Assembly: GCF_000025925.1 (NCBI RefSeq)
Contig: NC_014033.1
Coordinates: forward strand, 3,360,001-3,392,000
DNA length: 32,000 nt
Source of the DNA: Xylanibacter ruminicola 23
Lineage (GTDB): Bacteria > Bacteroidota > Bacteroidia > Bacteroidales > Bacteroidaceae
Direction: 5' to 3'
Of the stretch, positions 2,353-28,175 are shown one piece after another. The first letter of the stretch is position 1; each line of letters begins with the position of its first letter. The position numbers and the translations under genes are program-made. Below the pieces are notes generated by a model. That model saw only the letters and a list, made by a program, of their open reading frames with translations. It did no database searches and had not been told where the DNA came from.

Positions 2353-5300
2353 ATGAAACAGCTAACAAGTCTTTTGAAACGTGCTGTTCCTTCTTTGCTT
2401 CTACTTTTCTGCTCTGCTTTCGCGCAGGCGCAGGTAGGCAGTGTTAGCATTAAGGGATCGGTCGTTGACAATGCGGGTGAGCCTCTGATTGGCGCATCGG
2501 TTGTTTTGAAGGGAAACACTGGTCAGGGTACGGTAACGGACTTTGACGGTAATTTCCAGTTGAAGGTTCCTTCTGAGAGTTCAGTTATTGTGATCTCTTA
2601 TGTGGGAATGAACACTCAGGAACTGAAGGTGGGCAAGCAGCGCACTTTCAAGGTGACACTGACCGACAACACCAAGTTGACGGAAGTGGTAGTAGTTGGT
2701 TACGGCCAGCAGAAGAAAGCCTCGGTGGTAGGTGCTATTACCCAGACCACAGGTGAGGTGCTGGAGCGTGCCGGCGGTGTGAGCAACATTGGTGCTGCCC
2801 TGACAGGTAATCTGCCTGGTGTAGTAACCATGCAGTCTACTGGTATGCCAGGTGATGAGGATCCAAAGATTGTGATCCGTGGTATTTCTTCTTGGAACTC
2901 AAGCGATCCTCTTGTATTGGTGGATGGTATTGAGCGTTCACTCGGAAGTATCGACATCGCCTCTGTACAGAGCATTTCTGTACTGAAGGATGCCTCTGCT
3001 ACAGCCGTGTATGGTGTGAAGGGTGCCAATGGTGTTATTCTGGTTACTACCAAACGTGGTAATGATGGTAAGGCCAAGATCGAAATCGGTATGCAGGCTA
3101 CTGCCAAGGTGGTTTCACAACTGCCTGGAAAGCTGCACTCAGCCGATGCACTGGCCGTTCGTAACCAGGCTATCGAGCATGAGTTAGGTCTCACTCCTTC
3201 TTCATGGGGTAAGATTACACCAGAGGGAATCCTGAATAAGTATCGTAACCCTATCGATCAGGCAGAGCGCGAGCGCTATCCTGATGTGGATTGGCAGGAC
3301 GAGCTCTTCAAAAAGATGGCTTTCTCTTACAATCCTAATGTTAACATCTCGGGTGGCACCAAGGCCGTAAAGTACTTTGCTTCGGTTGACTTCCTGCACG
3401 AGGGTGACTTGTATAGGGAGTTTGATAATAACCGTGGTTATAATGCCGGTTATGGTTTCAACCGTATCAACGTACGTTCAAACCTGGACTTCCAGATTAC
3501 TAAGACAACAGTCTTGAAGTCGAACCTGTTCGGTAGTCATGGTCAGAAGAAGGGTCTGTATGGTATCGACACCGGTTCATGGTATGAGAGTCAGTTGTGG
3601 CAGGCTGCCTACAGCACACCAACAGATGCTTTCATGCCTCGTTACAGTGACGGTACATGGGGTTACTATCCCGACGACACTCAGGGTGCTCATAACTCTA
3701 TGCAGGATATTGCAACTGGTCATGGTTCGGCCACCAATACTACTACGCGCGTAAATACCGACTTTATCCTGGAGCAGGATCTGTCGTTCATCACACCAGG
3801 ACTCCGTGCTTCGGCTACGGTATCTTGGGATAACGTGTTTGTTGAGGTGAACCGTGGTATCAACGATATGAACCACTCTACACAGACCAAGTGGATTGAT
3901 CCTGAGACTGGTCAGGAGAAGTATTCTCAGCCTCAGGACAGTAAGACCAACTTCGACTACCACGAGGGTATCCTCTGGAGTACTAATGGTGGTTCTATTC
4001 AGAACTGGAACACACAGCGTAACCTGTTCTATCAGGGACAGTTGTTCTGGGGCCGTCAGTTCGGTCAGCACGATGTAACTGCCATGGGTGTATTCAACCG
4101 TACAGAGCGCACATCGGGTGGTAACTTCACTAACTATCGTGAGGACTGGGCCTTCCGTACCACTTATAATTATGGTGGCAGATATTTCTTTGAGTACAAT
4201 GGTGCTTACAACGGATCAGAGAAGTTCTCAAGTGCCAACCGCTTTGCTTTCTTCAACTCAGGTGCCGTAGGTTATCTGATTAGTGAGGAGAAGTTCTTCC
4301 AGCCTTTGAAGAAGTATATCGGCATGCTGAAGTTCCGTTACTCTTATGGTGAGGTTGGTGATGACTATATCAACAGTCGTTGGCTCTATGCTACACAGTG
4401 GGCATATGGTGGTAACATTCAGCAGGGCCTGCAGACTGAGACCAGTCCTTACACATGGTATAAAGAGTCTTCTGTAGGTAACCCCGATGTACACTGGGAG
4501 AAGGCTATCAAGCAGAACTTAGGTATCGACTACTCTCTGTTGGATGGTTTGTTCGCCGGATCGATTGAAATCTTCCACGAGAAGCGTTCCGACATTCTGA
4601 TTGCTGGTGCTAACCGTTCTATTCCTTCTTATTATGGTGCTACACCTGCCACTGCTAACCTGGGTCGTGTTCGTACCAAGGGTTATGAGTTGGAACTCCG
4701 TGTAAACAAGGTGCTTCATAATGGCATGCGTTTCTGGGGTAACTTCAACATGACTCATGCTGAGAATAAGATTCTGGAGTATGATGATGCTCCTGGACTG
4801 CCCGATTATCAGAAGCAGACCGGCTTTGCCATTGGTCAGGATCATGCAAACCTGACATCTGGCTATGCTAACACTTGGGACCAGGTTATTGGTATGACCG
4901 ATTTCAATACCAATGATGATCAGAAACTGCCCGGATCGTACATCATCCACGACTACAATGGTGATGGTGTGATTGATTCAAACGATTCAGCTCCATATAG
5001 TCTGACTGGCACACCACAGAACACCTATAGTGCTTCTATCGGTTGGGAGTGGAAGGGCTTCAGCGTTTATATGCAGTTCTATGGCGTACGTAATGTGGTT
5101 CGTTATGTAGCCTTCAACTCTCTGCCTGGTGGAAAACTCGATACCGTATATGATGAGGGTAGCTACTGGACCGTGGATAACATGGATGCCGACGCACCTA
5201 TGCCACGTTGGGGTTCTAAGCCCGACTATTACGAGGGCACACGTTTCCACTATGATGGTTCATTCATCCGTCTGAAGAATGCTGAGATTGCCTATACATT

Positions 5301-15231: not shown

Positions 15232-15280
15232 TATTGTTTGTCTATGAGCAGACAATTTTAGAACTTTACATTGTTTTTGG

Positions 15281-15312
15281 AGCCTGGGCTTGTGAAAGTC
15301 CAGGCTTTTTTC
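15281..15312 (+). terminator. Rho-independent terminator of the xus operon
   Basis: agcctgggctt / gtga loop / aagtccaggct forms an 11-bp stem with one G-U pair, followed by TTTTTT. It lies 50 nt after the xyn10C stop. Confidence 0.8.
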
Positions 15313-15335: not shown

Positions 15336-15343
15336 TAATTTTG
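15336..15343 (+). promoter_or_regulatory. Putative -7 promoter box for the four-gene cassette
   Basis: TAATTTTG matches TAnnTTTG. It lies 25 nt upstream of the ATG at 15369 and immediately downstream of the terminator. Confidence 0.45.
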
Positions 15344-15368
15344 CAGGGTTTTTTGAAAGATCAGATTT

Positions 15369-17027
15369 ATGAAGCCTGAATACATCAATAGATATCTCCA
15401 GACGGCTGCCAAAAAGAATTGGATTTTGTCAGTTTTTCTTGGCGCTTTGATCTTTTTGTTTTGGGGAGGATATCTGCCGCATGCACTTTCTTACGCAGAG
15501 CAATACCAACTGTTTTTGTGGACGCCTGACTATCTGTTAGGATGTTTGGGGCATCCAGGAGGGGCTGCTGAATGGCTCGAAACATGTATGGTGCAGTTTT
15601 ATTACCTGCTGTGGTTGGGGGCAATGATTCTGGCTTTGCTTTTTATCGGCTATCAGCGGATGGTGGCAAGCTGGTTAAAAGCAGAGTCTTTTCTGCTGAG
15701 TTTGATTCCTGCTATTTTGCTCTTTTGGGCGATGGGCGATCTGGATGTGCTTCTTTCGTTTCCTATCGCTATTATGGCTTCTCTGGCGATGGCTAAGATT
15801 GGTGTTGCTAATCGTTGGTTGGATATCTGCAAGGAAATGGTTCTGACACCATTGGTATATTGGCTGATTGGTCCGATGGCATGGCTGTATGTAGCATTAC
15901 GCATTGTGGTGGATTACAAGCGCTTTATCTGGCTGCCATTATGGTTGTTGGCCATACAACTGGTGTTGTGGCATACGTTGCTGGAGCAGTTACCCTTACA
16001 CTCGGTGATGTGTTCTATGGGCTATTATCGTAGTCCATCGGTGGTTCCCCTGCTATGGATAGTGCCACTATCCGTGCTGTTATGTGTGTTGGCTGACCGA
16101 CTATATATAAATAAGGTATTAAAGTGGCCTGTTCAGGCGATTGCCGTTGTGGTGTTAGGTTGGCTGGCTGTGACACGTGGTTATGCCGATGAGCGCTACG
16201 AGTTGGTATGGCAAGACTATCAAATCAGAAACGAACATTGGGACGACATCATCAAACGGGCCGAACAGAAAACGGTGGAAACGGCATTCTGGTCTAACAG
16301 CGTGAATCTGGCATTGGCAGAACGTCGCCAGTTGGCTGATAGAATGTTCGACTTTTACCAGAGCGGAATCGATGCCTTGTTAATGAATATGGTACGCGAT
16401 CCATTCTCGAATATACCAGCTGCCGAGGCTTTCTATCGTTTGGGTATGGTTAATTCTGCACAACGGTATATGTTTGATATGCAGGAGTCGATCAATAATG
16501 GCAGAAAGAGCGGACGTTTTACCCAGCGTATCGCTGAGTGCTATATTATCAATGGGAAATACGATTTGGCCAGGAAACATCTGGCGCTCCTGAAGAACAG
16601 TCTGTTTTATAAGAACTGGGCAGAAGAGGCAGAGCAATATCTGGGCGATGAGGCTGGGATTAATGCCCATTCTGTTTGGGGAAAGTTGCGACAATATCGA
16701 CAGAAGCAGGATTTCCTGTTCTACTACCCGGAGATGGCTTCGATGCTGGGTAGCTTGTTTAATGGAAACAGATCGAACACCATGGCGTTGGATTATTTCG
16801 TGGCGCAGGTCCTGTTGAACGGCGATGCGCCCACCTTCCAGCAGGCATTGCCATGGGTAGAGCAGTGTGGAGGCTATATGCAGATGCCTCGTGGTTATCA
16901 AGATGCCTTGAACTGTATCCAGCGTCAGGGTAATGTGCCAGGTTCGCCGTATGCCGCCTTTATCAGTAGGATGTTAGCGAAAGCACAGCAACAACAAAAC
17001 AATCAAGTGTATGAAACAGCTCATTAA
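15369..17027 (+). CDS. Uncharacterised polytopic membrane protein (about 8 predicted TM segments) with a C-terminal helical, TPR-like soluble domain; paralogue A1
   Basis: 552 aa. Hydrophobic segments by eye at about aa 18-36, 73-95, 108-123, 126-145, 157-180, 186-205, 225-242 and 255-269, followed by a roughly 280-aa hydrophilic helical region. Shares the blocks KKNW, FWG, QLFL..DYL, LVQF, YWL.GP and SLFYKNWA with the ORF at 18505. From memory it resembles the Bacteroidota DUF6057 membrane-protein family; this is unverified. Confidence 0.8.
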   Translation: MKPEYINRYLQTAAKKNWILSVFLGALIFLFWGGYLPHALSYAEQYQLFLWTPDYLLGCLGHPGGAAEWLETCMVQFYYLLWLGAMILALLFIGYQRMVASWLKAESFLLSLIPAILLFWAMGDLDVLLSFPIAIMASLAMAKIGVANRWLDICKEMVLTPLVYWLIGPMAWLYVALRIVVDYKRFIWLPLWLLAIQLVLWHTLLEQLPLHSVMCSMGYYRSPSVVPLLWIVPLSVLLCVLADRLYINKVLKWPVQAIAVVVLGWLAVTRGYADERYELVWQDYQIRNEHWDDIIKRAEQKTVETAFWSNSVNLALAERRQLADRMFDFYQSGIDALLMNMVRDPFSNIPAAEAFYRLGMVNSAQRYMFDMQESINNGRKSGRFTQRIAECYIINGKYDLARKHLALLKNSLFYKNWAEEAEQYLGDEAGINAHSVWGKLRQYRQKQDFLFYYPEMASMLGSLFNGNRSNTMALDYFVAQVLLNGDAPTFQQALPWVEQCGGYMQMPRGYQDALNCIQRQGNVPGSPYAAFISRMLAKAQQQQNNQVYETAH

Positions 17028-18495
17028 TCATATTTCTATTGTCTTGACAGCGATCTTCTGTCTGGTCATGCTGGAGGGCTGTCGCCATCAGGTGGAGCAT
17101 GCAACTCGTGTGCATCAGGTGCCTGCTATCTATCCCGATTATGTAGGGGTGACTATCCCGGCGGGTATTGCTCCCTTGGATTTTAATTTCGTGGGTGGCA
17201 ATGTGGATCTGTTGGATGTAACGGTTCGTGGCTCTAAAGGAGGCGAACTGCATGTACAAGGTGAATGGGCTGACTTTGATATTGAAGCATGGCAACAGCT
17301 GACCCAACAGAATGCAGGTGGTGAGTTGCTATTTACTGTTTGTGTGGAGCATGATGACCAGTGGACACAGTATGATGATTTCAAGGTGTATGTGAGCAAA
17401 CTGCCCTTAGAGGATTATGGCCTGACTTATCGTAGAATTCCACCTGGTTATGAGGTGGGTGGCGCTAACATCGGTATCTATCAGCGTGATTTGCACAGTT
17501 TCGACGAGACTGCCATTTTGAAGGTGAGTGCTGTTTACGGCCATTGCATCAACTGTCATACAGCTAACCAGACCAATCCTTCTACGCTTACCATGCAGTT
17601 CCGTGGCGAAGGTGGTGGCACCCTGGTGCAGAAGAATGGCAACCAGCAATGGCTGAATACCCGTACCGATTCTACCAAGGCTGCTGGCAGCTATGCCTAC
17701 TGGCATCCGTCGGGGCGTTATTGTGCTTACGCCGTGAATTCGGTGCATCAGAATTTCCATGTGGGTACCGAGAAACGTATTGAGGCTTATCACCGCTTTA
17801 GCGATCTGATTCTCTTAGATACTCAGACCAATCAACTGATACTCTCGCCATTGTTACAGACGGAGGATCAGGAGATATTCCCCGCATTCTCGCCCGATGG
17901 TAAGTATCTGTATTACAGCACTTCGAAACCATGCAATCTGCCTGCTGAGTACGAGAAGGTGAAGTGTAGCATCTGCCGGATTGCCTTTGATGGGAAGACA
18001 GGCACTTTCGGTAACGAGGTTGATACACTGGTAAATACTGCGGCTACCGGTAAGAGTTATACGTTGGTTCGTCCTTCTTACGATGGACGCTGGCTGATGT
18101 TCTGTGTGAGCGACCATAGTAATTTCCCGGTGTTCCAGAATGATGCCGACTTATGGCTGATGGACTTGAAAACTGGTGAGATGCGTGAGTTGAAGGAGGT
18201 AAACAGTCGTAAGACGGAGAGCTTTCATAACTGGAGCTCAAACAGTGGATGGTTTGTGTTCTCGTCGAAACGCGAGAATGGCGAGTATGCCCAACTTTAC
18301 CTGGCATCTATAGATGATAAAGGCCGTGTTACCAAGCCGTTCTTGTTGCCCCAGCGTAATCCCAAGAAATACTACAGTGAATTGTTCGACTCGTATAATG
18401 TGCCCGATTTCACCAAGTCACCAGTAAGTCTGGATGTACATGAGGTTCACAGACAGGTGTTTGATGGCAAGCGACAACAGGTAACAATTAGATAA
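17011..18495 (+). CDS. Uncharacterised lipoprotein with a single CXXCH motif and PD40/TolB-like beta-propeller repeats; paralogue B1
   Basis: 494 aa. Signal peptide with lipobox MLEGC (Cys24). CINCH at nt 17545-17559. PD40-like blades PAFSPDGKYLYYST, RPSYDGRWLMF and HNWSSNSGWFVFSS. Collinear with the ORF at 19740 over its whole length. The start overlaps the A1 stop by 17 nt. Confidence 0.85.
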   Translation: MKQLINHISIVLTAIFCLVMLEGCRHQVEHATRVHQVPAIYPDYVGVTIPAGIAPLDFNFVGGNVDLLDVTVRGSKGGELHVQGEWADFDIEAWQQLTQQNAGGELLFTVCVEHDDQWTQYDDFKVYVSKLPLEDYGLTYRRIPPGYEVGGANIGIYQRDLHSFDETAILKVSAVYGHCINCHTANQTNPSTLTMQFRGEGGGTLVQKNGNQQWLNTRTDSTKAAGSYAYWHPSGRYCAYAVNSVHQNFHVGTEKRIEAYHRFSDLILLDTQTNQLILSPLLQTEDQEIFPAFSPDGKYLYYSTSKPCNLPAEYEKVKCSICRIAFDGKTGTFGNEVDTLVNTAATGKSYTLVRPSYDGRWLMFCVSDHSNFPVFQNDADLWLMDLKTGEMRELKEVNSRKTESFHNWSSNSGWFVFSSKRENGEYAQLYLASIDDKGRVTKPFLLPQRNPKKYYSELFDSYNVPDFTKSPVSLDVHEVHRQVFDGKRQQVTIR

Positions 18496-18504
18496 CCAAA
18501 CGAA

Positions 18505-19728
18505 ATGATGAAAAAGAATTGGAAACTATATCTGACAGCCCTATTTGGTATAGCTGTGTTCTGTTTCTGGGGGTATGTGTGGCCTGAAGTGATATTGGCG
18601 CGTGAGTCGTTTCAGCTGTTCCTCTATCAGGATGATTATCTGATGGAGCGGTTGGCTTTTCCTGATGGCATGGCGCGCTATGTTGGAGAGTTCCTGGTAC
18701 AGTTCTTTCGATTCGTGACGCTGGGAGCCTTGCTATCTGCTATCTTGCTGGTTGCTATTCAACAGCTTTTCGGTGTGCTGCTGAAACGAGTTCTGCCTGC
18801 TGTCAGTGAAAAGATTCTTTTCCCCGTATCTTTCTTGCCTTCGGTCGTGCTGTGTTACCTGTTATGCGACCTGGACTTCTCAATGACTCTGCCTGTAGGT
18901 CTTCTGTTTACATTGGTGCTGATATTGCTATTGCCCCATCGGAAGATGCCTGCTTTCATCGTTTCATGTCTGCTCGTGCCAATAGGCTATTGGCTGGCAG
19001 GTCCTATCATCGTGTTGCTGCCTTTATATCATCTCAGAATGCTTTCTATCCCTCGCGAAAGAATAGCTGTTGTAGCACAGACTTCGGGTATGGGCCTGCT
19101 GTTGCTGGCCTGTATCATCTTCAGTTCGTATTTCGTGCCGTATTCTTTGGAGAATATATTCAAGGGCTTGGATTACCAGATGATTCAGCGTGGCAAGTTT
19201 GGCACCGATGAGGAGATGGTGTATGATCGTCTTTTGCGTATGAAAGACTGGAACGAGATTGTCAGGAGGTCGAACGAGCAGGAACCGCAGTCGTTAGCTT
19301 GTAAAAACGTGGTACGTTTGGCCAAGTATTACCTGAAGCAGATTTCCGGTGATGAGTTGAAGGAGAATCTGTTGCATACTTACGAGGTGCTGACCAGTGG
19401 TATGGCGGCCATGATGATGAGCGATGTATATCTTCACATGGGTTTCCCGAACATATCGCAACGTGCTGCCTTCGAGGTGCTGGAGAGTACTTCGAATTAT
19501 AATATGAGTGGTCGTGAACTGTCGCGACTGGTGGAAACAGCTCTGATTACGGGGCAATATGAGGTAGCGTTGAAATACATCTCTTTGTTGGAATCTACCT
19601 TGTTCTATCGTAACTGGGCAAAACAGATGAGAGAGTTGGCTGCGCATCCTGAAACAATTAAAAGGGTGCCATTCTATGGCCCGTTACAGGATATCTATGG
19701 TCAGACAGTTGATGTGAATTTCTTTTAG
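18505..19728 (+). CDS. Uncharacterised polytopic membrane protein with a shorter C-terminal helical domain; paralogue A2
   Basis: 407 aa with the same N-terminal layout as A1 (MMKKNW..., FWG, QLFLYQDDYL, LVQFF, GYWLAGP). The soluble domain aligns with A1 (SQRAAFEVLESTSNYNMSGRELSRLVETALITGQYEVALKYISLLESTLFYRNWA versus SAQRYMFDMQESINNGRKSGRFTQRIAECYIINGKYDLARKHLALLKNSLFYKNWA). It ends about 100 residues earlier than A1, measured from the shared LFY(K/R)NWA block. Confidence 0.8.
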   Translation: MMKKNWKLYLTALFGIAVFCFWGYVWPEVILARESFQLFLYQDDYLMERLAFPDGMARYVGEFLVQFFRFVTLGALLSAILLVAIQQLFGVLLKRVLPAVSEKILFPVSFLPSVVLCYLLCDLDFSMTLPVGLLFTLVLILLLPHRKMPAFIVSCLLVPIGYWLAGPIIVLLPLYHLRMLSIPRERIAVVAQTSGMGLLLLACIIFSSYFVPYSLENIFKGLDYQMIQRGKFGTDEEMVYDRLLRMKDWNEIVRRSNEQEPQSLACKNVVRLAKYYLKQISGDELKENLLHTYEVLTSGMAAMMMSDVYLHMGFPNISQRAAFEVLESTSNYNMSGRELSRLVETALITGQYEVALKYISLLESTLFYRNWAKQMRELAAHPETIKRVPFYGPLQDIYGQTVDVNFF

Positions 19729-19739
19729 ATGAAGGTGAT

Positions 19740-21188
19740 ATGAAGAAGATAAACAAATGGGCTTTGATAACACTGCTGTCATTTCTCGTGTCGGCATGTA
19801 GTCTGCACCCTGATCATGTGCAGATGGTGAACCAGCAGCCTGATATATATCCGGATTATATCGGTGTAACGATACCTGTGGATATCGCACCGCTGAATTT
19901 CTCAATGACTGATGATGACTTTACAGATGTCTATGTAGATGTGAAAGGCGAGAAGGGTGGTTCTATACATGCAGAGGGGACCTATGCTGATTTTGACGTA
20001 GATGAGTGGCATCAGTTATTGAAGGCTAACAAGGGAAGTCGTTTGTTGGTGTCGGTGATGGCATGCAGAGAGGGAAACTGGTATCAGTATCGCGACTTTT
20101 CTATCGAGGTTAGTCCGAATCCGCTTGACGAATGGGGTATTACCTATCGCCGTATTGCGCCCAGTTATGCGCTCTATGGTCATATGGGGCTGTATCAGCG
20201 TTGTCTCTCTGACTTTACAGAAACGTCGATGCTGGAGAATTCGCAAGTGCATGGACAATGCATGAACTGTCATACCCAGAATCGTACGAATCCTGAGCAG
20301 TATGTGTTCCATGTGAGAGGTGAGCATGGTGCTACAGTGGTACATCAACACGGAAAGGATGTACTCCTCAAAGCGCGTAACGACAGTCTGGGAGGTACAA
20401 TGGTCTATCCCTACTGGCATCCGAGTGGTCGCTATTGTGCCTTTTCAACTAATAAAACAGCACAGATGTTTCATACTGGCAACAACAAGCGTATTGAGGT
20501 GTTTGATACCTCATCGGATGTGTTTGTTTACGACATGGAGAAGCATGAGGTTATCAAGGATACCCTGATTATGACGACTGGTTGGGCAGAGAATACACCT
20601 GCTTTCTCGCCTGATGGTAAGTGGTTGTATTTTACAACTGTCAGATGTGGCAACTATCCCAAAGGCTATGATCAGGTAAGGTATAGTCTTTGTAGAGTGG
20701 CATTTGATGAGAAATCGGGCAAGATTGGTACCGAGGTGGATACGTTGGTAAATGCTGGTGTAACGGGTAAAAGCGTGACTTGGCCTCGCCCTTCGTATGA
20801 TGGAAAGTACTTGATGTACACGCAGTTGGATTATGGTTACTTCTCGGTTTGGCATCCGGAAGCAGATTTATATATGCTTGATCTTGAGACGGGAGTAAAC
20901 AGACCATTGAACGAGGTGAATAGCATACGTTCGGAGAGTTTGCATAACTGGACGCGTAATAGTCGTTGGTTCCTGTTTACCAGTCGTCGTGAGGATGGTT
21001 TGTACACACGTCTTTATTTCTCGTCTGTTGATGAACACGGGAAGGCCACCAAGCCGTTCCTGCTTCCACAACAAAATCCTAAGGAGTATTATCAGCGCTT
21101 AATGTATTCGTATAACACCCCCGATTTTACATCTGTACCAGTTAAAACGAATGCTCGCGAAATGGGTAGGAAAATAGAGCGTTTCTGA
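19740..21188 (+). CDS. Uncharacterised lipoprotein with a single CXXCH motif and PD40/TolB-like beta-propeller repeats; paralogue B2
   Basis: 482 aa. Lipobox LVSAC (Cys20). CMNCH at nt 20259-20273. PAFSPDGKWLYFTT, RPSYDGKYLMY and HNWTRNSRWFLFTS. Blocks shared with B1 include IYPDY.GVTIP, ITYRRI, YWHPSGRYCA, EVDTLVN and TKPFLLPQ.NPK.YY. Confidence 0.85.
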   Translation: MKKINKWALITLLSFLVSACSLHPDHVQMVNQQPDIYPDYIGVTIPVDIAPLNFSMTDDDFTDVYVDVKGEKGGSIHAEGTYADFDVDEWHQLLKANKGSRLLVSVMACREGNWYQYRDFSIEVSPNPLDEWGITYRRIAPSYALYGHMGLYQRCLSDFTETSMLENSQVHGQCMNCHTQNRTNPEQYVFHVRGEHGATVVHQHGKDVLLKARNDSLGGTMVYPYWHPSGRYCAFSTNKTAQMFHTGNNKRIEVFDTSSDVFVYDMEKHEVIKDTLIMTTGWAENTPAFSPDGKWLYFTTVRCGNYPKGYDQVRYSLCRVAFDEKSGKIGTEVDTLVNAGVTGKSVTWPRPSYDGKYLMYTQLDYGYFSVWHPEADLYMLDLETGVNRPLNEVNSIRSESLHNWTRNSRWFLFTSRREDGLYTRLYFSSVDEHGKATKPFLLPQQNPKEYYQRLMYSYNTPDFTSVPVKTNAREMGRKIERF

Positions 21189-21272: not shown

Positions 21273-21280
21273 TACCTTTG
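21273..21280 (+). promoter_or_regulatory. Putative -7 promoter box for the debranching-enzyme operon
   Basis: TACCTTTG matches TAnnTTTG and lies 28 nt upstream of the ATG at 21308. Confidence 0.45.
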
Positions 21281-21307: not shown

Positions 21308-24070
21308 ATGATTAATAAATCAGCAGCCATAGCAGCACTCATGTTGCTAGCTACAGGTGCGAAGGCACAGAACCCCTTCGTACAGACTTGGTGTACCAGC
21401 GACCCTGCACCGATGGTACATAACGGAATAATGTATGTTTATACTGGTCATGACGAAGATGGCGCCGACTTCTTTTGGATGCAGGAGTGGCGTGTATATT
21501 CAACTCAGGATATGGTGAACTGGCAGGACCATGGTTCGCCATTGGCCTTGGAGACTTTCTCGTGGGCCGATGACCGTGCTTGGGCCGGACAGACTATCGA
21601 ACGTGACGGAAAATTCTACTGGTATATCTGTGCTCATTCAAAGATTTCGAATGGTATGGCCATTGGTGTGGCTGTGAGCGATAGTCCTACAGGTCCGTTT
21701 AAGGATGCACTTGGAAAACCTTTGTTTGAGAATGGCAGCTGGGATCATATCGATCCAACCGTGATGATTGATGACGATGGGCAGGCTTGGCTGATGTGGG
21801 GTAATCCACAGTGCTACTACCTGAAGCTGAACCGTGATATGATTTCGTACGAAGGTGAACTGGGAAAGCTGCCTATGACCGAAGAGGCTTTTGGCGGTCC
21901 GATGATGAAGGAGCGCGAGAAGGGCAAGACCTATAAAGATTCGTATGTTGAAGGTCCTTGGTTAACCAAGCGCAATGGTACATATCAGTTGTTGTATGCT
22001 GCTGGCGGCGTGCCTGAGCATATCTCCTATAGTACGGCTCCATCGCCTCTGGGTCCTTGGAAATATGCCGGCGAGATTATGCCGCTGTGCGATACCAACT
22101 CGTTTACCAACCACTGTGGTGTGGCCGATTATAAAGGTCATAGCTATTTCTTCTACCATACAGGTAAACTGCCAAATGGTGGCGGTTTCGGTCGTAGTGT
22201 AGCTGTTGAGGAGTTTAAGTACAATGCCGATGGCAGTTTCCCAAAGATTATGCCCACCGATGCAGGCGTGAAGCCTGTTGGCGTGTTTAACCCTTATCGT
22301 AAGGTTGAGGCCGAGACGATGGCTTTCTCGAAAGGCGTGAAGACCGAGCAAAATGATGAGGTAGGGGTTTATGTCAGTGACATCCACAATGGCGACTATA
22401 TCAAACTTCAGAATGTGGCCTTTGCCAACAAGTATCCACGTACGTTCACAGCCCGTGTGGCCAGTGGTTTGCGTGGTGGCAGAATTGAGATTCATCTCGA
22501 CAGTATCGGTGGCAGATGTTTGGGCACCCTGAACGTGCCTGGTACAGGTGGCTGGGAGAAGTGGCAGACCATTACCGTTGATCTGGATTACTCTACCATC
22601 ACCGATATCGATGCACCAACCCGAACCATTTCGGGTTTGAACCTGCCTGCTACAGCCGACGTTTATCTGGTGTTCAAAGGTCGTAAGGGACCAAAACTGT
22701 TTAACTTCGACTGGTGGGAGATGCGTGGACTGGAGCAGGTGAACATGCCTTTGTTCCAAACCAAATATACTGCCGACCCATCGCCACTGGTAGTAGGTGA
22801 TACCCTGTTCCTCTATACTTCGCATGATGCCTCGCCCGAGGATATCCCCGATGTGAACGAGAAGAGTTCGGCAGGTTTCTTTATGTACGACTGGCTGTTG
22901 TGGAGCACTACCGATATGGTGAACTGGACCGAGCATGGTGCAGTGGCTTCGTTGAAAGACTTCGCTTGGCGCAGTCGCGAGAACGGTGGCTGGGCTATCC
23001 AGACCGTAGAGCGTAATGGTAAGTATTACCTGTATGCCCCTCTGCATGGTCATGGTATCGGTGTACTGGTGGCCGATTCGCCTTACGGACCGTTTAAAGA
23101 CCCACTCGGCAAGCCATTGGTTTGGGATCAGAGTAACTGGTATGATATCGACCCATCAGTTTATACCGACGACGATGGTCAGGCTTATATGTACTGGGGA
23201 AACCCACATACCTTCTGGGCTAAGTTAGGTGAGGATATGACATCGCTGACCAGCGGTGTAACCAAACTGCCACATATCCCCAACTATCAGGAGGGACCTT
23301 GGTTCTACAAGCGCAATGGTCATTACTATTTAGGTTTCGCATCAACCTGTTGCCCTGAGGCTTTAGGCTATGCCATGAGCGACAGTCCTACCGGACCTTG
23401 GGAATGGAAAGGCTATATTATGAAGCCCACCCAGCGCGACCGTGGTAACCATCCCGGTATCTGCGATTTCAAGGGACATTCGTATGTGTTCGGTCAGAAC
23501 TACGATCTGATGCATCTGGAGACTTTTGTGCACCATGAGCGTCGCAGTGTGTCGGCTCAGGAGATTACCTATAATGGCGATGGCACCATCCAGGAGATTC
23601 CTTACTGGTTGGACCAGCAGCCCATGAAGCAGTTGCACTGGCTGAACCCCTACCAGCGTGTAGAGGCTGAGACCATGGCTTGGGGCTTCGGACTGAAGAG
23701 TGCCAAGATGGGTATCGAGAATCCTGGTGTGGTAGCAGATATGCCTACCTCAACGGGAAAGAAGAATATGTATATCTTTGATATTAATGATGGCGAGTAT
23801 ATCAAACTGCGTGGTGTTGACTTCGGTAAGGGTGCCAAGCAGTTTAATATCACAGCAGCCGCTACTGGTGGTTGCACCATCTGTCTGCGATTAGATAGTG
23901 CCGACGGTCCTGTGGTAGGTACCGTCACCATCGGTAAGACCGGTGGCGTTGAGAAATATCGCTCATTCGGTGGCAAAGTGAAGAATGCTGCTGGTGTGCA
24001 TGATCTTTATATATGTTTCGACAAAGCATCAGGTGATGTTCGTCTGGATTGGTGGCAGTTTAAAAAATAA
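21308..24070 (+). CDS. Two-headed GH43-CBM6-GH43-CBM6 enzyme (probable alpha-L-arabinofuranosidase / beta-xylosidase)
   Basis: 920 aa with a signal peptide. GH43 starts NPFVQTWCTSDPAPMV and PLFQTKYTADPSPLVV, each followed by DMVNW..HG, Y.Y....G.GIGVAVSDSPTGPFKD-type blocks and EGPW. Each half ends with a CBM6-like module (NPYRKVEAETMAF...GDYIKLQNVAF and NPYQRVEAETMAW...GEYIKLRGVDF). Confidence 0.9.
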   Translation: MINKSAAIAALMLLATGAKAQNPFVQTWCTSDPAPMVHNGIMYVYTGHDEDGADFFWMQEWRVYSTQDMVNWQDHGSPLALETFSWADDRAWAGQTIERDGKFYWYICAHSKISNGMAIGVAVSDSPTGPFKDALGKPLFENGSWDHIDPTVMIDDDGQAWLMWGNPQCYYLKLNRDMISYEGELGKLPMTEEAFGGPMMKEREKGKTYKDSYVEGPWLTKRNGTYQLLYAAGGVPEHISYSTAPSPLGPWKYAGEIMPLCDTNSFTNHCGVADYKGHSYFFYHTGKLPNGGGFGRSVAVEEFKYNADGSFPKIMPTDAGVKPVGVFNPYRKVEAETMAFSKGVKTEQNDEVGVYVSDIHNGDYIKLQNVAFANKYPRTFTARVASGLRGGRIEIHLDSIGGRCLGTLNVPGTGGWEKWQTITVDLDYSTITDIDAPTRTISGLNLPATADVYLVFKGRKGPKLFNFDWWEMRGLEQVNMPLFQTKYTADPSPLVVGDTLFLYTSHDASPEDIPDVNEKSSAGFFMYDWLLWSTTDMVNWTEHGAVASLKDFAWRSRENGGWAIQTVERNGKYYLYAPLHGHGIGVLVADSPYGPFKDPLGKPLVWDQSNWYDIDPSVYTDDDGQAYMYWGNPHTFWAKLGEDMTSLTSGVTKLPHIPNYQEGPWFYKRNGHYYLGFASTCCPEALGYAMSDSPTGPWEWKGYIMKPTQRDRGNHPGICDFKGHSYVFGQNYDLMHLETFVHHERRSVSAQEITYNGDGTIQEIPYWLDQQPMKQLHWLNPYQRVEAETMAWGFGLKSAKMGIENPGVVADMPTSTGKKNMYIFDINDGEYIKLRGVDFGKGAKQFNITAAATGGCTICLRLDSADGPVVGTVTIGKTGGVEKYRSFGGKVKNAAGVHDLYICFDKASGDVRLDWWQFKK

Positions 24071-26246: not shown

Positions 26247-28175
26247 ATGAGCAAAAAACTATTATTAACTCTACTCATGGCCTGCGCTATGCAGGCAAAG
26301 GCCGGCACCATCACCAATGCTGATGGTACGGTAACATTCCAGTATAAGAACGACCAGGCCAAAGAGGTGCTGGTTGATGTGCAGTTTGCAGGGCGTAAAG
26401 CCATGCAGAAAGATGCCAAGACAGGCTTATGGACCGTAACGCTGGGTCCGGCTGCCCCCGACATGTATCCCTATTGCTTCGTGGTTGACGGTGTGAGCAT
26501 CATGGACCCCGACAATCCACAGTACTTCCCCAACGAGGGCTTTAAGAACAGTCTGTTGGAGATCAAATCGAAAGACGGATTGCCCCACGACATCAAGAAT
26601 GTGCCCCATGGCACCATGGAGTATATCCATTATTACTCTAAGAGTCTGGGCGGCACCAATACCGCCATCGTGTATTTGCCACCCAACTACATGATGAGTC
26701 GTGATAAGAAATACCCTGTATTCTATCTGATTAGTGGTACTACTGATACCGAAGAGGTTTATTATAAGGTGGGTCGTGTGAACTATATCCTCGACAATCT
26801 GCTGGCACAGAAGGCTGCCAAGGAGATGATTATCGTGCAGCCTTATGGTAATCCCACCAAACTGTTGGCAGCGCCTGCTGCTAACGGTGCCCCACAAACC
26901 CGTTTTGGTGGCGACGTGTTCAGTAAGGACCTGATCAACGACCTGATGCCTTATATCGAGAAAAACTACCGTACCATCAACAATAAGGATCATCGTGCCA
27001 TCGGTGGTTTCTCGCGTGGTGGAAACCAGGCTTTGTTCAATGGCTTGAGCAACCTGGATAAGTTCTCGTATCTGTGCAGCTACAGTTCGTTTACATCAAC
27101 CGATATTGCTGGTGTTTACGATAATGCTGAGGATACGAATAAGAAGATACGCCTGTTCTGGTTGGGTGTTGGTACCGACGATTTCCTGTATGGCAATGCC
27201 CGCGACTATATGGAGTTCCTCGACACCAAGGGTATCCGCAGTGTGAAGGAGTTTACCAACGATAAGTTCGGACATACCTGGATGAACGCCAAGTATTTCC
27301 TGACCAAGACCTTGCCACTGCTCTTCAATAAGAAAGCTGCCGAAACAGCCATGGCTACCGGTGAGCCAGCCCCTGCCAAGACCGGAAAGGAGCAGCAGTT
27401 CACTCCTGGTGTTATGGCCCGACTCTTCCCACGTCCTATCATCTCGCCCGAATATACCGAGGATGGTATCATCTTCCGTTTCAAGGCGCCTGAGGCTAAG
27501 AAGGTGGAGCTGGAGTGCGAGATGCTGCCCGAGAATGTGGCTATGGAGCGCGACAGCGACGGCGTGTGGAGCGTGAGGCTGAACGAGTATCTGTTTGAGA
27601 CCTTTAAGTATTGCTTTGTGGTTGACAGCATGCAGGTTACCGACCCCAGCAACATGTATATCTCGCCCGATGCCGGCTTTAAGTACAGTGTGGCCGACAA
27701 TCCTAAGTCGCCATTCAACTTCGCCTCGCAAGGTGAGATGGATCACGGTCGTGTCAGCTACGACTTGGAGCGTAATACCGCTTTCTATATCTCTGGCAAT
27801 ATGCGTATGGGCGTGATGCCTGCCTTTATCCAGCTGATTCCTGTCGAAGGTGAATCGGTAGAAAGCTGGTTTAAGGTAGGTGGTGCCGATGCCATTACCG
27901 ACCGTTTGATTGCCGATGGCAATGCCAAGCCCTGTATGATCACCGTGAGCGCTCAGGATCTAAGTCAGCAGCAGGGTGGTATGCAGATGCCTGGCTTTAA
28001 GATGAATAAGCTGGACGCCAACGATTATCCTACATGGAGCTTGCGTCGCAGAGCCTTAGTAAAACTGTTGCTCGAAATTAAGAAGCAGCCCGATCCTGAG
28101 TTCCCCGCTATGGGCGGCTTTGGCGGTGGCGGCTTTAATGGAGGCGGTGGCTTTGGCGGCGGCTTCGGTATGTAA
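26247..28175 (+). CDS. CE1-type (esterase D / feruloyl esterase-like) carbohydrate esterase with an Ig-like N-domain, a degenerate second repeat and a Gly/Phe-rich tail
   Basis: 642 aa with a signal peptide. E-set-like module (TVTFQYKN...YPYCFVVDGVSIMDPDNP). Alpha/beta-hydrolase with nucleophile elbow GGFSRGG (Ser codon 27012-27014), GTDDF and FGHTW. A second E-set-like module (IIFRFKAPE...FKYCFVVDSMQVTDPSN). The C-terminus is AMGGFGGGGFNGGGGFGGGFGM. Confidence 0.85.
   Translation: MSKKLLLTLLMACAMQAKAGTITNADGTVTFQYKNDQAKEVLVDVQFAGRKAMQKDAKTGLWTVTLGPAAPDMYPYCFVVDGVSIMDPDNPQYFPNEGFKNSLLEIKSKDGLPHDIKNVPHGTMEYIHYYSKSLGGTNTAIVYLPPNYMMSRDKKYPVFYLISGTTDTEEVYYKVGRVNYILDNLLAQKAAKEMIIVQPYGNPTKLLAAPAANGAPQTRFGGDVFSKDLINDLMPYIEKNYRTINNKDHRAIGGFSRGGNQALFNGLSNLDKFSYLCSYSSFTSTDIAGVYDNAEDTNKKIRLFWLGVGTDDFLYGNARDYMEFLDTKGIRSVKEFTNDKFGHTWMNAKYFLTKTLPLLFNKKAAETAMATGEPAPAKTGKEQQFTPGVMARLFPRPIISPEYTEDGIIFRFKAPEAKKVELECEMLPENVAMERDSDGVWSVRLNEYLFETFKYCFVVDSMQVTDPSNMYISPDAGFKYSVADNPKSPFNFASQGEMDHGRVSYDLERNTAFYISGNMRMGVMPAFIQLIPVEGESVESWFKVGGADAITDRLIADGNAKPCMITVSAQDLSQQQGGMQMPGFKMNKLDANDYPTWSLRRRALVKLLLEIKKQPDPEFPAMGGFGGGGFNGGGGFGGGFGM

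Follow-up and report, generated by a model that had tools for sequence, protein, structure and literature searches.

Four adjacent genes in a xylan polysaccharide utilization locus (PUL) of Xylanibacter ruminicola 23 encode two pairs of a DUF6057 membrane protein (A) and a PD40 β-propeller lipoprotein (B), which represent a recurrent, uncharacterized fifth component of PULs. Each A probably associates physically with its own B, as judged from sequence comparisons. The explanation that is favored here, tentatively and with somewhat less than even confidence, is an inner-membrane-tethered periplasmic complex that carries a probable heme c or other cofactor site and was recruited to PULs. The genes (A1, B1, A2, and B2) are located in a window of 32,000 nucleotides, which is the whole stretch of DNA that was analyzed (contig NC_014033.1, positions 3,360,001 to 3,392,000; all coordinates below are window positions). 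They are packed on the same strand with junctions of -17, +9, and +11 nt, as described in an earlier note that was made from the sequence. PULs are the central model of dietary-fiber use by gut and rumen Bacteroidota, and their parts list (SusC/SusD, surface binding proteins, carbohydrate-active enzymes [CAZymes], regulators, and importers) is usually deemed complete. The four hypothetical genes can now be cast in a testable model in which an inner-membrane TPR anchor is matched to its own propeller lipoprotein in the periplasm, the latter with a CxNCH/R198 site.

The DUF6057 identity of A, which the earlier note had offered tentatively, proved right. A1 and A2 score 400.9 and 244.5 bits against Pfam DUF6057 (PF19529, gathering cutoff 29.8), and the family is matched by 33/33 diverse A homologs. 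A1 harbors about eight hydrophobic segments (residues 19-270) followed by a TPR-like helical domain (~274-520), and its AlphaFold2 (AF2) model (pLDDT 71, pTM 0.68) takes on a helical membrane bundle up to residue ~270 and a TPR-like helical domain thereafter. The estimate of roughly eight transmembrane (TM) segments thus stands for A1 and fails for A2, which has about six hydrophobic segments and the TPR-a part. A2 aligns to residues 15-452 of A1, and the last ~100 aa of A1 (region 453-552) have no equivalent in it. When the A1 model was compared to the PDB with Foldseek, only TPR proteins were matched (YfgM, p67phox, Rap/AimR, and TadD, best E 0.18); the membrane part was without a match, and a PDB profile search with A gave none either.

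B1 and B2 score 38.8 and 35.5 bits against Pfam PD40 (cutoff 20.9). B1 is constructed from a signal peptide, the lipobox Cys24, an Ig-like sandwich (~38-130), and a roughly six-bladed PD40 propeller (~137-470). The lipobox cysteine is invariant across 33 diverse homologs. The AF2 model of B1 (pLDDT 83, pTM 0.83) shows about six four-stranded blades and resembles the propellers of S9 peptidases, tricorn, TolB-type proteins, GH74 enzymes, and others in Foldseek (E down to 1e-8). A PDB profile search with B gave weak TolB matches only, and the sub-threshold family matches in Pfam and NCBIfam are TolB, PorE, and Dpp5. The models hence agree with the architectures described before: A is a membrane protein with a helical domain, and B is a lipoprotein with a CXXCH and PD40 blades. 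Also in line with that description, no CAZyme, transporter, or regulator signature was found in the four proteins in Pfam and NCBIfam, and PADLOC defense models gave no match at E<=0.01. The databases name A1 and A2 “DUF6057 family protein” and B1 “TolB family / PD40 domain-containing protein.” B2 is a “cytochrome c-binding protein” in one source and otherwise appears as Lipoprotein or PD40 domain-containing protein. The earlier note could not name a characterized homolog, and PDB profile, Foldseek, and literature searches (including searches for “DUF6057” and for the protein accessions, which returned no papers) gave none. For A-B, these searches gave neither a published function nor a solved structure, and DUF6057 and PD40 were the only curated families; as a system it fits no known kind.

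The strongest evidence for a cognate pair comes from the comparison of many loci. When one genome per GTDB species was scanned, 79 loci were obtained, which cover six or more Bacteroidales families, and a DUF6057 gene is located directly upstream and on the same strand of 124 of the 134 full-length B genes in them. Some of the exceptions are contig ends or belong to a divergent DUF6057 cluster (confirmed at 2.8e-65). The A-A and B-B identities are correlated with r=0.86 over the 124 pairs, whereas shuffling the partners within multi-pair loci (200 shuffles) yields a mean r of 0.28 and a maximum of 0.49. Additionally, nature has fused the two proteins. An exhaustive profile search gave 620 representative clusters (50% identity) at E<=1e-30, and fusions are among the best 150. 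Single polypeptides with an N-terminal DUF6057 part and a C-terminal B part are P0311, P0331, P0381, and the partial P0334, which are devoid of the signal peptide and the lipobox cysteine of B; P0473 is listed with DUF6057 and propeller Pfam domains. Two of the A-B fusions adjoin SusC/SusD genes (L087:2461-5445 and L088:3021-5594). A C-terminal TPR extension was found on B itself in P0433, which was scanned directly, and P0509 is listed with a propeller and many TPR Pfam domains. Adjacency, correlated divergence, and fusion together support the suggestion of the earlier note that each membrane protein works with its own lipoprotein.

A membrane-anchored periplasmic TPR protein that is adjacent and translationally coupled to a CXXCH protein is reminiscent of CcmI (CycH) and NrfG, which act as apocytochrome chaperones in system I and Nrf maturation. 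A could accordingly be a dedicated maturation chaperone with B alone as the functional unit, to which we assign a very slim probability. Fusion and one-to-one co-diversification are more readily explained by a permanent complex than by a chaperone that acts transiently. Moreover, a single chaperone could serve all paralogs, yet each B has its own A, and B proteins that have lost the CXXCH motif keep their partner. CcmI and NrfG show no detectable sequence or profile relation to A. System II of cytochrome c maturation (ccsBA) has no CcmI, and it is system II that Bacteroidales use.

The topology of A is less readily assigned. Its hydropathy is ambiguous, as eight or six segments imply a cytoplasmic C-terminus and the positive-inside rule favors a re-entrant fifth segment. 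Minimal A variants of 294-333 aa (L034, L062, L040, and L049) consist of TM1, a 45-residue loop 1, TM2, a K/R-rich loop, TM3, and the TPR part (A1 283-452). The N-terminus of A is predicted to be cytoplasmic and the TPR domain periplasmic because the 3-TM variants have a K/R-rich N-terminus and because A-B fusions put the C-terminus of the TPR domain in the compartment of B, an exported lipoprotein when unfused. The fifth hydrophobic segment of A1 and A2, which contains a conserved YWLxGP, would then be non-spanning, as a periplasmic TPR domain requires, and this arrangement is also the better fit to the positive-inside rule. Conservation along A is highest in loop 1 and TPR-a and lowest in TM4-8 (mean column identity 0.12-0.32). 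The minimal variants mark TM4-8 as dispensable, and the functional core of A would be three TM segments with the TPR part rather than an 8-TM bundle.

These findings bear on the barely plausible reading in which A is an inner-membrane transporter and B its substrate-binding lipoprotein for the import of xylo-oligosaccharides or another PUL product. It could draw on the ~8 hydrophobic segments of A1, on a pairing of membrane protein and lipoprotein that recalls binding-protein-dependent uptake, and on the window, in which no MFS or ABC importer was seen. Because natural variants get by with three TM segments and TM4-8 are poorly conserved, a transporter or polytopic enzyme is disfavored. Membrane transporter families (MFS, ABC-2, and others) and transporter folds gave no match for A, and the binding face of B is invariant across PULs of differing specificity. 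A further candidate for A, a GT-C, oligosaccharyltransferase, or O-antigen-ligase protein (Wzy_C, WaaL), was prompted by the acidic loop-1 residue and a Wzy_C_2 match. It was rejected: the match occurs in 1/33 A homologs at E 0.016, no GT-C or WaaL match was found by PDB sequence or fold, and some members have just three TM segments.

In Bacteroidota, acidic residues directly after the lipidated cysteine act as the lipoprotein export signal that leads to surface exposure. A cluster of this kind (at least two acidic residues at +2 to +5) is present in 1/136 B proteins, for which reason B probably stays in the periplasm and is not surface-exposed. The identity of B as a SusE/F-like surface glycan-binding protein (SGBP) was rejected, as 135/136 copies are without the acidic cluster. 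XusB and BtuG are surface-exposed. XusABC (BT2065-2063) and BtuB/BtuG resemble the present system in that a TonB-dependent receptor operon encodes a propeller lipoprotein, in Xus together with a polytopic inner-membrane protein. Xus of Bacteroides is composed of the PepSY protein BT_2063, the DUF4374 protein BT_2064, and the receptor BT_2065 (PMC10434189). Its families are DUF4374 and PepSY, in contrast to PD40-CxNCH and DUF6057, the acidic cluster is lacking in B, and A-B occurs in Planctomycetota without a TonB-dependent receptor.

The best sequence and fold matches of B are in Tol-Pal (TolB/CpoB) and type IX secretion (PorE), which combine a periplasmic PD40-type propeller with a TPR component. 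TolB/CpoB and PorE belong to envelope-spanning assemblies. B, a lipoprotein with CxNCH, differs from TolB by its Ig-like N-domain, which takes the place of the α/β TolA-binding domain, and by its DUF6057 and PUL neighbors in place of a tolQRA-tolB-pal context; an OmpA-like domain is absent. With 24.2 and 23.2 bits, B1 and B2 stay far below the TolB cutoff (TIGR02800, 343 bits). Membership in S9 prolyl-oligopeptidases is likewise not indicated, as only the propeller is matched, and B ends ~25 residues past the last blade without an α/β-hydrolase domain and its Ser-Asp-His triad. The soluble domain of A is a TPR-like superhelix, and TPR scaffolds are also known from synthase-dependent exopolysaccharide secretion (PelB, AlgK, BcsC, and PgaA). 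Their periplasmic TPR arrays dock polysaccharide-handling partners along a route across the envelope, and the systems themselves are polymer exporters that terminate in a barrel of the outer membrane. A, by contrast, is anchored by a DUF6057-specific inner-membrane bundle and has a propeller lipoprotein as its partner; homology was not detected.

From these likenesses it is possible, if somewhat doubtful, that A-B is a non-catalytic envelope scaffold or chaperone in the manner of TolB/CpoB, PorE, or the exopolysaccharide scaffolds, which would organize periplasmic enzymes or hand over oligosaccharides and in which CxNCH would hold a structural metal or form a disulfide. Foldseek and profile searches relate B to TolB and other substrate-gating propellers, NCBIfam gives a weak match to the type IX secretion scaffold PorE (TPR and propeller), and the soluble domain of A matches nothing but TPR scaffolds and chaperones (YfgM and TadD are examples). 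Three TM segments suffice in the most reduced forms of A, motif-less B proteins are still paired with A, and planctomycete copies stand among housekeeping genes. The scores (TolB 24 versus 343, PorE 17 versus 600 bits) are, however, far under the cutoffs, and a peptidoglycan-binding or OmpA-like domain is lacking. Forty-nine near-invariant positions, many of them charged, would be unexpected for a plain scaffold whose paralogs are ~35-45% identical, and CxNCH and R198 behave as a unit.

The single CXXCH that was noticed in each B (CINCH in B1, CMNCH in B2) is a family trait. CxxCH is present in 136/136 B copies of the surveyed loci, 134 of which read CxNCH, and in 143/149 B representatives. 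Two of the six motif-less representatives are fragments, and the four full-length ones (P0313, P0367, P0397, and P0402) have all also lost R198, which belongs to the RGE motif of the following blade. Two motif-less B were looked up (loci L098 and L099), and both are still located 3′ of a DUF6057 gene. When the AF2 strand order of B1 is compared to the sequence, CxNCH falls on strand D of blade 1 and the D-to-A loop that follows, a place at which blades 2-5 carry the PD40 signature (WHPSG, FSPDG, PSYDG, and HNWSSNS). Inside the otherwise confident propeller, AF2 confidence drops to 68-75 at the motif. Forty-nine positions are at least 97% identical across the 136 B proteins, whose mean identity is 45%. 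Many of these are Arg, Tyr, Glu, His, or Lys, and they include D43, Y44, Y140, R141, R159, R198, Y228, E258, E288, H406, R421, K442, and Q448. Such a pattern resembles that of an active site or cofactor site held in common and is unlike variable ligand binding. B most likely carries a cofactor at CxNCH/R198, for which heme c would be the simplest, albeit unproven, candidate. As in c-type cytochromes, CXXCH is located in an exported protein, here with a lipoprotein signal peptide. Heme attachment would be feasible in Bacteroidales because Bacteroides, Porphyromonas, and Prevotella intermedia possess nrfAH and the system II genes ccsBA (PMC10434189).

The link to PULs emerged from the neighborhoods. 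SusC/SusD genes stand beside the pair in more than half of 80 loci (SusC-like genes in 43, SusD-like genes in 39), and both xylan PULs and other PULs are among them. A-B often occurs in two or three diverged copies. A recurrent order in Prevotellaceae is SusC-SusD-U496-[DUF4369]-A-B-[DUF4369]-A-B, often with an inverted third pair. Elsewhere, A-B pairs adjoin GH92, GH28, GH31, GH95, GH127, GH5, GH26-like, and GH18-like genes. The module is not xylan-specific, since its neighbors include GH92, GH28, GH5, and other families, and it is not Sus-dependent, since it is present in Planctomycetota. The unit did not merely land in the PUL, a possibility that the earlier note had raised for an unrelated envelope system: the pairs are habitual 3′ members of SusC/SusD operons, although they are bound neither to xylan nor to Sus.

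Nearly all surveyed loci are titled Bacteroidales (Prevotellaceae, Bacteroidaceae, Tannerellaceae, Rikenellaceae, Proteiniphilum, Muribaculaceae, and Coprenecus). One locus (L023, CAVCRI010000089.1) is labeled as a Lachnospiraceae bacterium and carries Prevotella-type A-B pairs with 51% identity to B1; bin contamination or mislabeling is likely. Pirellulales, Thermoguttaceae, and KSB1 also have members of the family. Four non-Bacteroidales loci were examined (L089, L095, L096, and L097), and in each of them DUF6057 is directly upstream of B and Sus genes are absent. L089 is an environmental contig of 61% GC, a value it shares with the A-B loci L090 and L091. GFO_IDH_MocA oxidoreductase genes are located within a few kb of A-B in L091, L095, and L097 (near three of four non-Bacteroidales copies), xylose-isomerase-like AP_endonuc_2 genes in L095 and L096, and genes with PSCyt3/PSD and HXXSHH domains in L096. 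These families are very abundant in Planctomycetota, and their proximity could be chance. It is well supported that the module is ancient (Bacteroidota, Planctomycetota, and KSB1) and that it was multiplied and attached to Sus operons in Bacteroidales.

The breadth of this distribution also speaks to the distinctly unlikely reading that A-B serves general envelope housekeeping (lipoprotein, outer-membrane, or cytochrome biogenesis) and that its presence in PULs reflects hitch-hiking or extra copies upon Sus induction. Copies beside tRNA synthetase, Clp, and other housekeeping genes in Planctomycetota and KSB1, identical invariant residues in all paralogs, and PULs of many specificities (xylan, and GH92, GH28, GH5, GH26, and GH18 neighbors) would all fit such a role. 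Housekeeping does not readily explain why loci carry two or three diverged copies whose subfamilies are tied to PUL types, why A and B co-diversify as cognate pairs, or why many loci have the pair directly 3′ of a SusD or SGBP-like gene and oriented the same way.

A sensor or regulatory accessory was considered as well, in which B would bind a periplasmic oligosaccharide or a redox or gas signal by way of its propeller or a heme and A would relay it within the membrane to a PUL regulator such as a hybrid two-component system (HTCS). The sensors of Bacteroidales HTCS are themselves PUL-encoded periplasmic β-propellers (Reg_prop) that are attached to the inner membrane. HTCS genes are found near some pairs (L039 is one case, and in L099 the neighboring pair is motif-less). 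In L089, genes for a histidine kinase/response regulator and for an HDOD protein are located 3′ of the pair, and no regulator gene was seen within the window. This role is nonetheless highly unlikely. HTCS carry kinase, receiver, and DNA-binding domains on one polypeptide, as exemplified in L039, whereas A-B is devoid of an output domain and hardly any of A is cytoplasmic. Adjacent regulators are missing in most loci, and the ligand-facing residues on the conserved face of B are invariant across PULs of differing specificity, the opposite of specificity-determining sensors.

The two pairs of the window belong to different branches of the family. B1 and B2 were judged by eye to be collinear and 40-50% identical, and the computed value is 47% over 484 aa with six gap positions; A1 and A2 are far more diverged, as had been stated (25% identity, E 5e-43). 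The term “duplicated” did not survive as the description of a local event, as each pair has closer orthologs elsewhere and B1 and B2 are just 47% alike. A recent tandem duplication of A1-B1/A2-B2 was rejected on the same grounds. B1 is 58-69% identical to the B of the first pair (pair 1) in the recurrent Prevotellaceae locus. B2 belongs with a different class (62-68% identity), in which A is short (208-437 aa). In other Prevotellaceae, X. ruminicola KHT3 among them, pairs of this class are located directly 3′ of SusD or beside GH10-CBM4, GH43, BD-FAE, and GH3 genes, and B2-type pairs occur with xylan genes in at least 11 loci. Because B1 and B2 each match a different class more closely than each other, the window joins two old subfamilies. 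In a sister species (L092, GCA_024712465.1, JAMQYI010989006.1), the same order of xusA-D, xusE, GH10, A-B, and A-B is found with a B1 ortholog of 79% identity, and the second pair consists of a long A (593 aa) and a B with only 38% identity to B2. This low value indicates that A-B cassettes were swapped over time at a fixed position of the xylan PUL.

The preferred explanation combines these observations as follows. Each A-B pair would form a cognate two-protein periplasmic complex. A would serve as the inner-membrane anchor with a cytoplasmic N-terminus, a conserved periplasmic loop 1 (E44-x-x-Q-x-F), 3 to 8 membrane segments, and a periplasmic TPR domain, and it would keep its cognate B on the periplasmic side of the inner membrane. 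In blade 1 of B, the PD40 signature is replaced by C-x-N-C-H, which together with R198 and ~25 other invariant polar residues would create the cofactor site. The preferred cofactor would be covalent heme c, installed by the system II machinery of Bacteroidales. The complex would perform one conserved chemistry or binding event on incoming periplasmic material that is the same in all paralogs and not xylan-specific. In Bacteroidales, A-B would have been multiplied and wired into SusC/SusD operons as a PUL accessory, and the window would contain a “pair-1 type” (A1-B1) and a “xylan-satellite type” (A2-B2) under their own promoter between the xus capture and the debranching genes.

Several points weigh against this explanation. 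AF2 draws CxNCH as a β-strand, a geometry that is unsuited to heme ligation or a CxxC disulfide, at low local confidence, and no cytochrome c model in Pfam or NCBIfam matches B at E<=1. A has no invariant His or Cys and thus no obvious electron route to the quinone pool, and an A-B pair can persist without the CxxCH motif, as the DUF6057 neighbors of the two motif-less B that were looked up show. Prevotella requires exogenous heme, which would make several heme lipoproteins per genome costly. The planctomycete neighbors are mixed housekeeping and oxidoreductase genes instead of glycan loci, so that the glycan link may be a Bacteroidales specialization or mere operon hitch-hiking. The accessible literature gave no xylan-dependent expression for the genes of the window, and the main texts of Segatella and Xylanibacter PUL transcriptome papers do not mention the four genes. 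On the supporting side, the genes J4031_09865-09910 of X. ruminicola KHP1 encode SusD, hypothetical, PD40, DUF4369, hypothetical, PD40, PD40, and hypothetical proteins in the order of the core locus (Table S6, PMC11575231), and they are presumed, from annotation and order only, to be a core A-B locus. All are transcribed (baseMean 166-942 in RNA-seq) and shift together, to about 2- to 4-fold higher levels, with added cobalamin (log2FC +1.07 to +1.96), as do many other PUL genes (PMC11575231).

A more specific proposal goes beyond a cofactor site and is unlikely on present evidence. In it, A-B would be a phylum-spanning periplasmic redox module, a propeller-based monoheme c-type cytochrome with a dedicated TPR anchor at the inner membrane, that in gut and rumen Bacteroidales carries out a non-hydrolytic (oxidative or reductive) step in polysaccharide use, for example as electron partner of periplasmic sugar oxidoreductases or by acting on non-carbohydrate decorations. 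To our knowledge, a monoheme c-type cytochrome on a β-propeller is an architecture without solved precedent. If the redox module were real, PULs would encode a new class of activity in addition to CAZymes, transporters, and regulators. Should the CxNCH/R198 site bind heme, strictly anaerobic, heme-requiring fiber degraders would invest heme in glycan loci, implying PUL redox chemistry; should it bind none, A-B would still be a new envelope complex. Experiments on A-B are feasible, as genetic tools are reportedly available for Segatella copri.

The surroundings of the four genes match the placement between the glycan-capture and debranching genes of one PUL that the earlier note had proposed. 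Upstream, on the + strand, are GH115, which is truncated by the start of the window, and, in the “xus” arrangement, two SusC/SusD pairs, a DUF5627/BT_3987-like lipoprotein, and a GH10 xylanase. Downstream on the + strand follow a double GH43-CBM6 protein, GH31, an esterase, a CE15 glucuronoyl esterase, and a BD-FAE esterase, and a pullulanase-type gene is located on the - strand at the window end. A terminator-like hairpin, which the earlier note had called the strong xus terminator, and the separate TAnnTTTG box of the unit were both located (Table 1). The promoter call for the latter is a match to the known Bacteroides consensus only. A terminator scan between B2 and the downstream TACCTTTG box found none.

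Table 1. Features of the four-gene unit and its borders (window positions)
Feature	Position	Strand	Remarks
Intrinsic-terminator-like hairpin with T-run	15279-15308	+	13-pair stem with 6 GC pairs and TTTTCTT tail; 3′ of GH10 stop, closes xusA-D/xusE/GH10 unit
TAATTTTG, putative Bacteroidota-type -7 promoter box (TAnnTTTG)	15336-15343	+	25 nt 5′ of A1 ATG
A1, DUF6057 protein, 552 aa	15369-17027	+	Pfam 1.6e-119; AF2 model; exact match WP_224082997 (X. ruminicola)
EQYQLFL, conserved loop-1 motif of A1	15498-15518	+	
B1, lipoprotein, 494 aa	17011-18495	+	PD40; 17-nt overlap with A1; exact match ADE81958/D5EY26
Lipobox Cys24 of B1	17080-17082	+	
CINCH of B1, residues 179-183	17545-17559	+	C-x-N-C-H motif
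A2, short DUF6057 protein, 407 aa	18505-19728	+	Pfam 3.7e-72; exact match WP_041386359
B2, lipoprotein, 482 aa	19740-21188	+	PD40; architecture as B1; exact match ADE81009/D5EY27
Lipobox Cys20 of B2	19797-19799	+	
CMNCH of B2	20259-20273	+	Sole CXXCH of B2
TACCTTTG box	21273-21280	+	5′ of GH43-CBM6 gene; downstream edge of four-gene unit

Other proteins recur next to A-B. U496, a lipoprotein of ~500 aa without a Pfam match, is encoded 3′ of SusD and just before A-B in 26 loci (examples are L005, L008, L010, L011, L018-L020, L025, L029, L042 [2563-4053], and L050). It contains an internal duplication and Trp-rich repeats (WWGCGVEDGECGDKF...) and looks like an undescribed SGBP-type family. A DUF4369 lipoprotein of ~200 aa with a helical tail and no thioredoxin domain is located between or before A-B in 27 loci (L005:11473-12129, L041:5059-5685, and L056:7678-8250) and is absent from the window. 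Both recur in the Prevotellaceae core locus only. In 11 loci (among them L030:8078-9130, L079:4524-5669, and L085:7151-8266) of Prevotellaceae, Alistipes, Proteiniphilum, Bacteroides, and Tannerella hosts, A-B has a neighbor without an evident link to it, a cytoplasmic protein (350-380 aa) that contains a RidA/L-PSP domain and weakly resembles FkbO/Hyg5 chorismatases. The neighbor survey gave no third conserved A-B partner.

Two further observations concern the downstream PUL genes. The window contains many antisense open reading frames (ORFs), and the longest, with 363 aa, is located within the GH43-CBM6 gene at 21962-23053 (-). Its translation is of low complexity (His/Gln/Thr/Ile-rich), and it is almost certainly not a gene. 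The esterase gene at 26247-28175 encodes a Gly-rich C-terminal tail (GGFGGGGFNGGGGFGGGFGM), and its Pfam Esterase match covers just residues 131-285 of 642, so that much of the protein is without an assignment.

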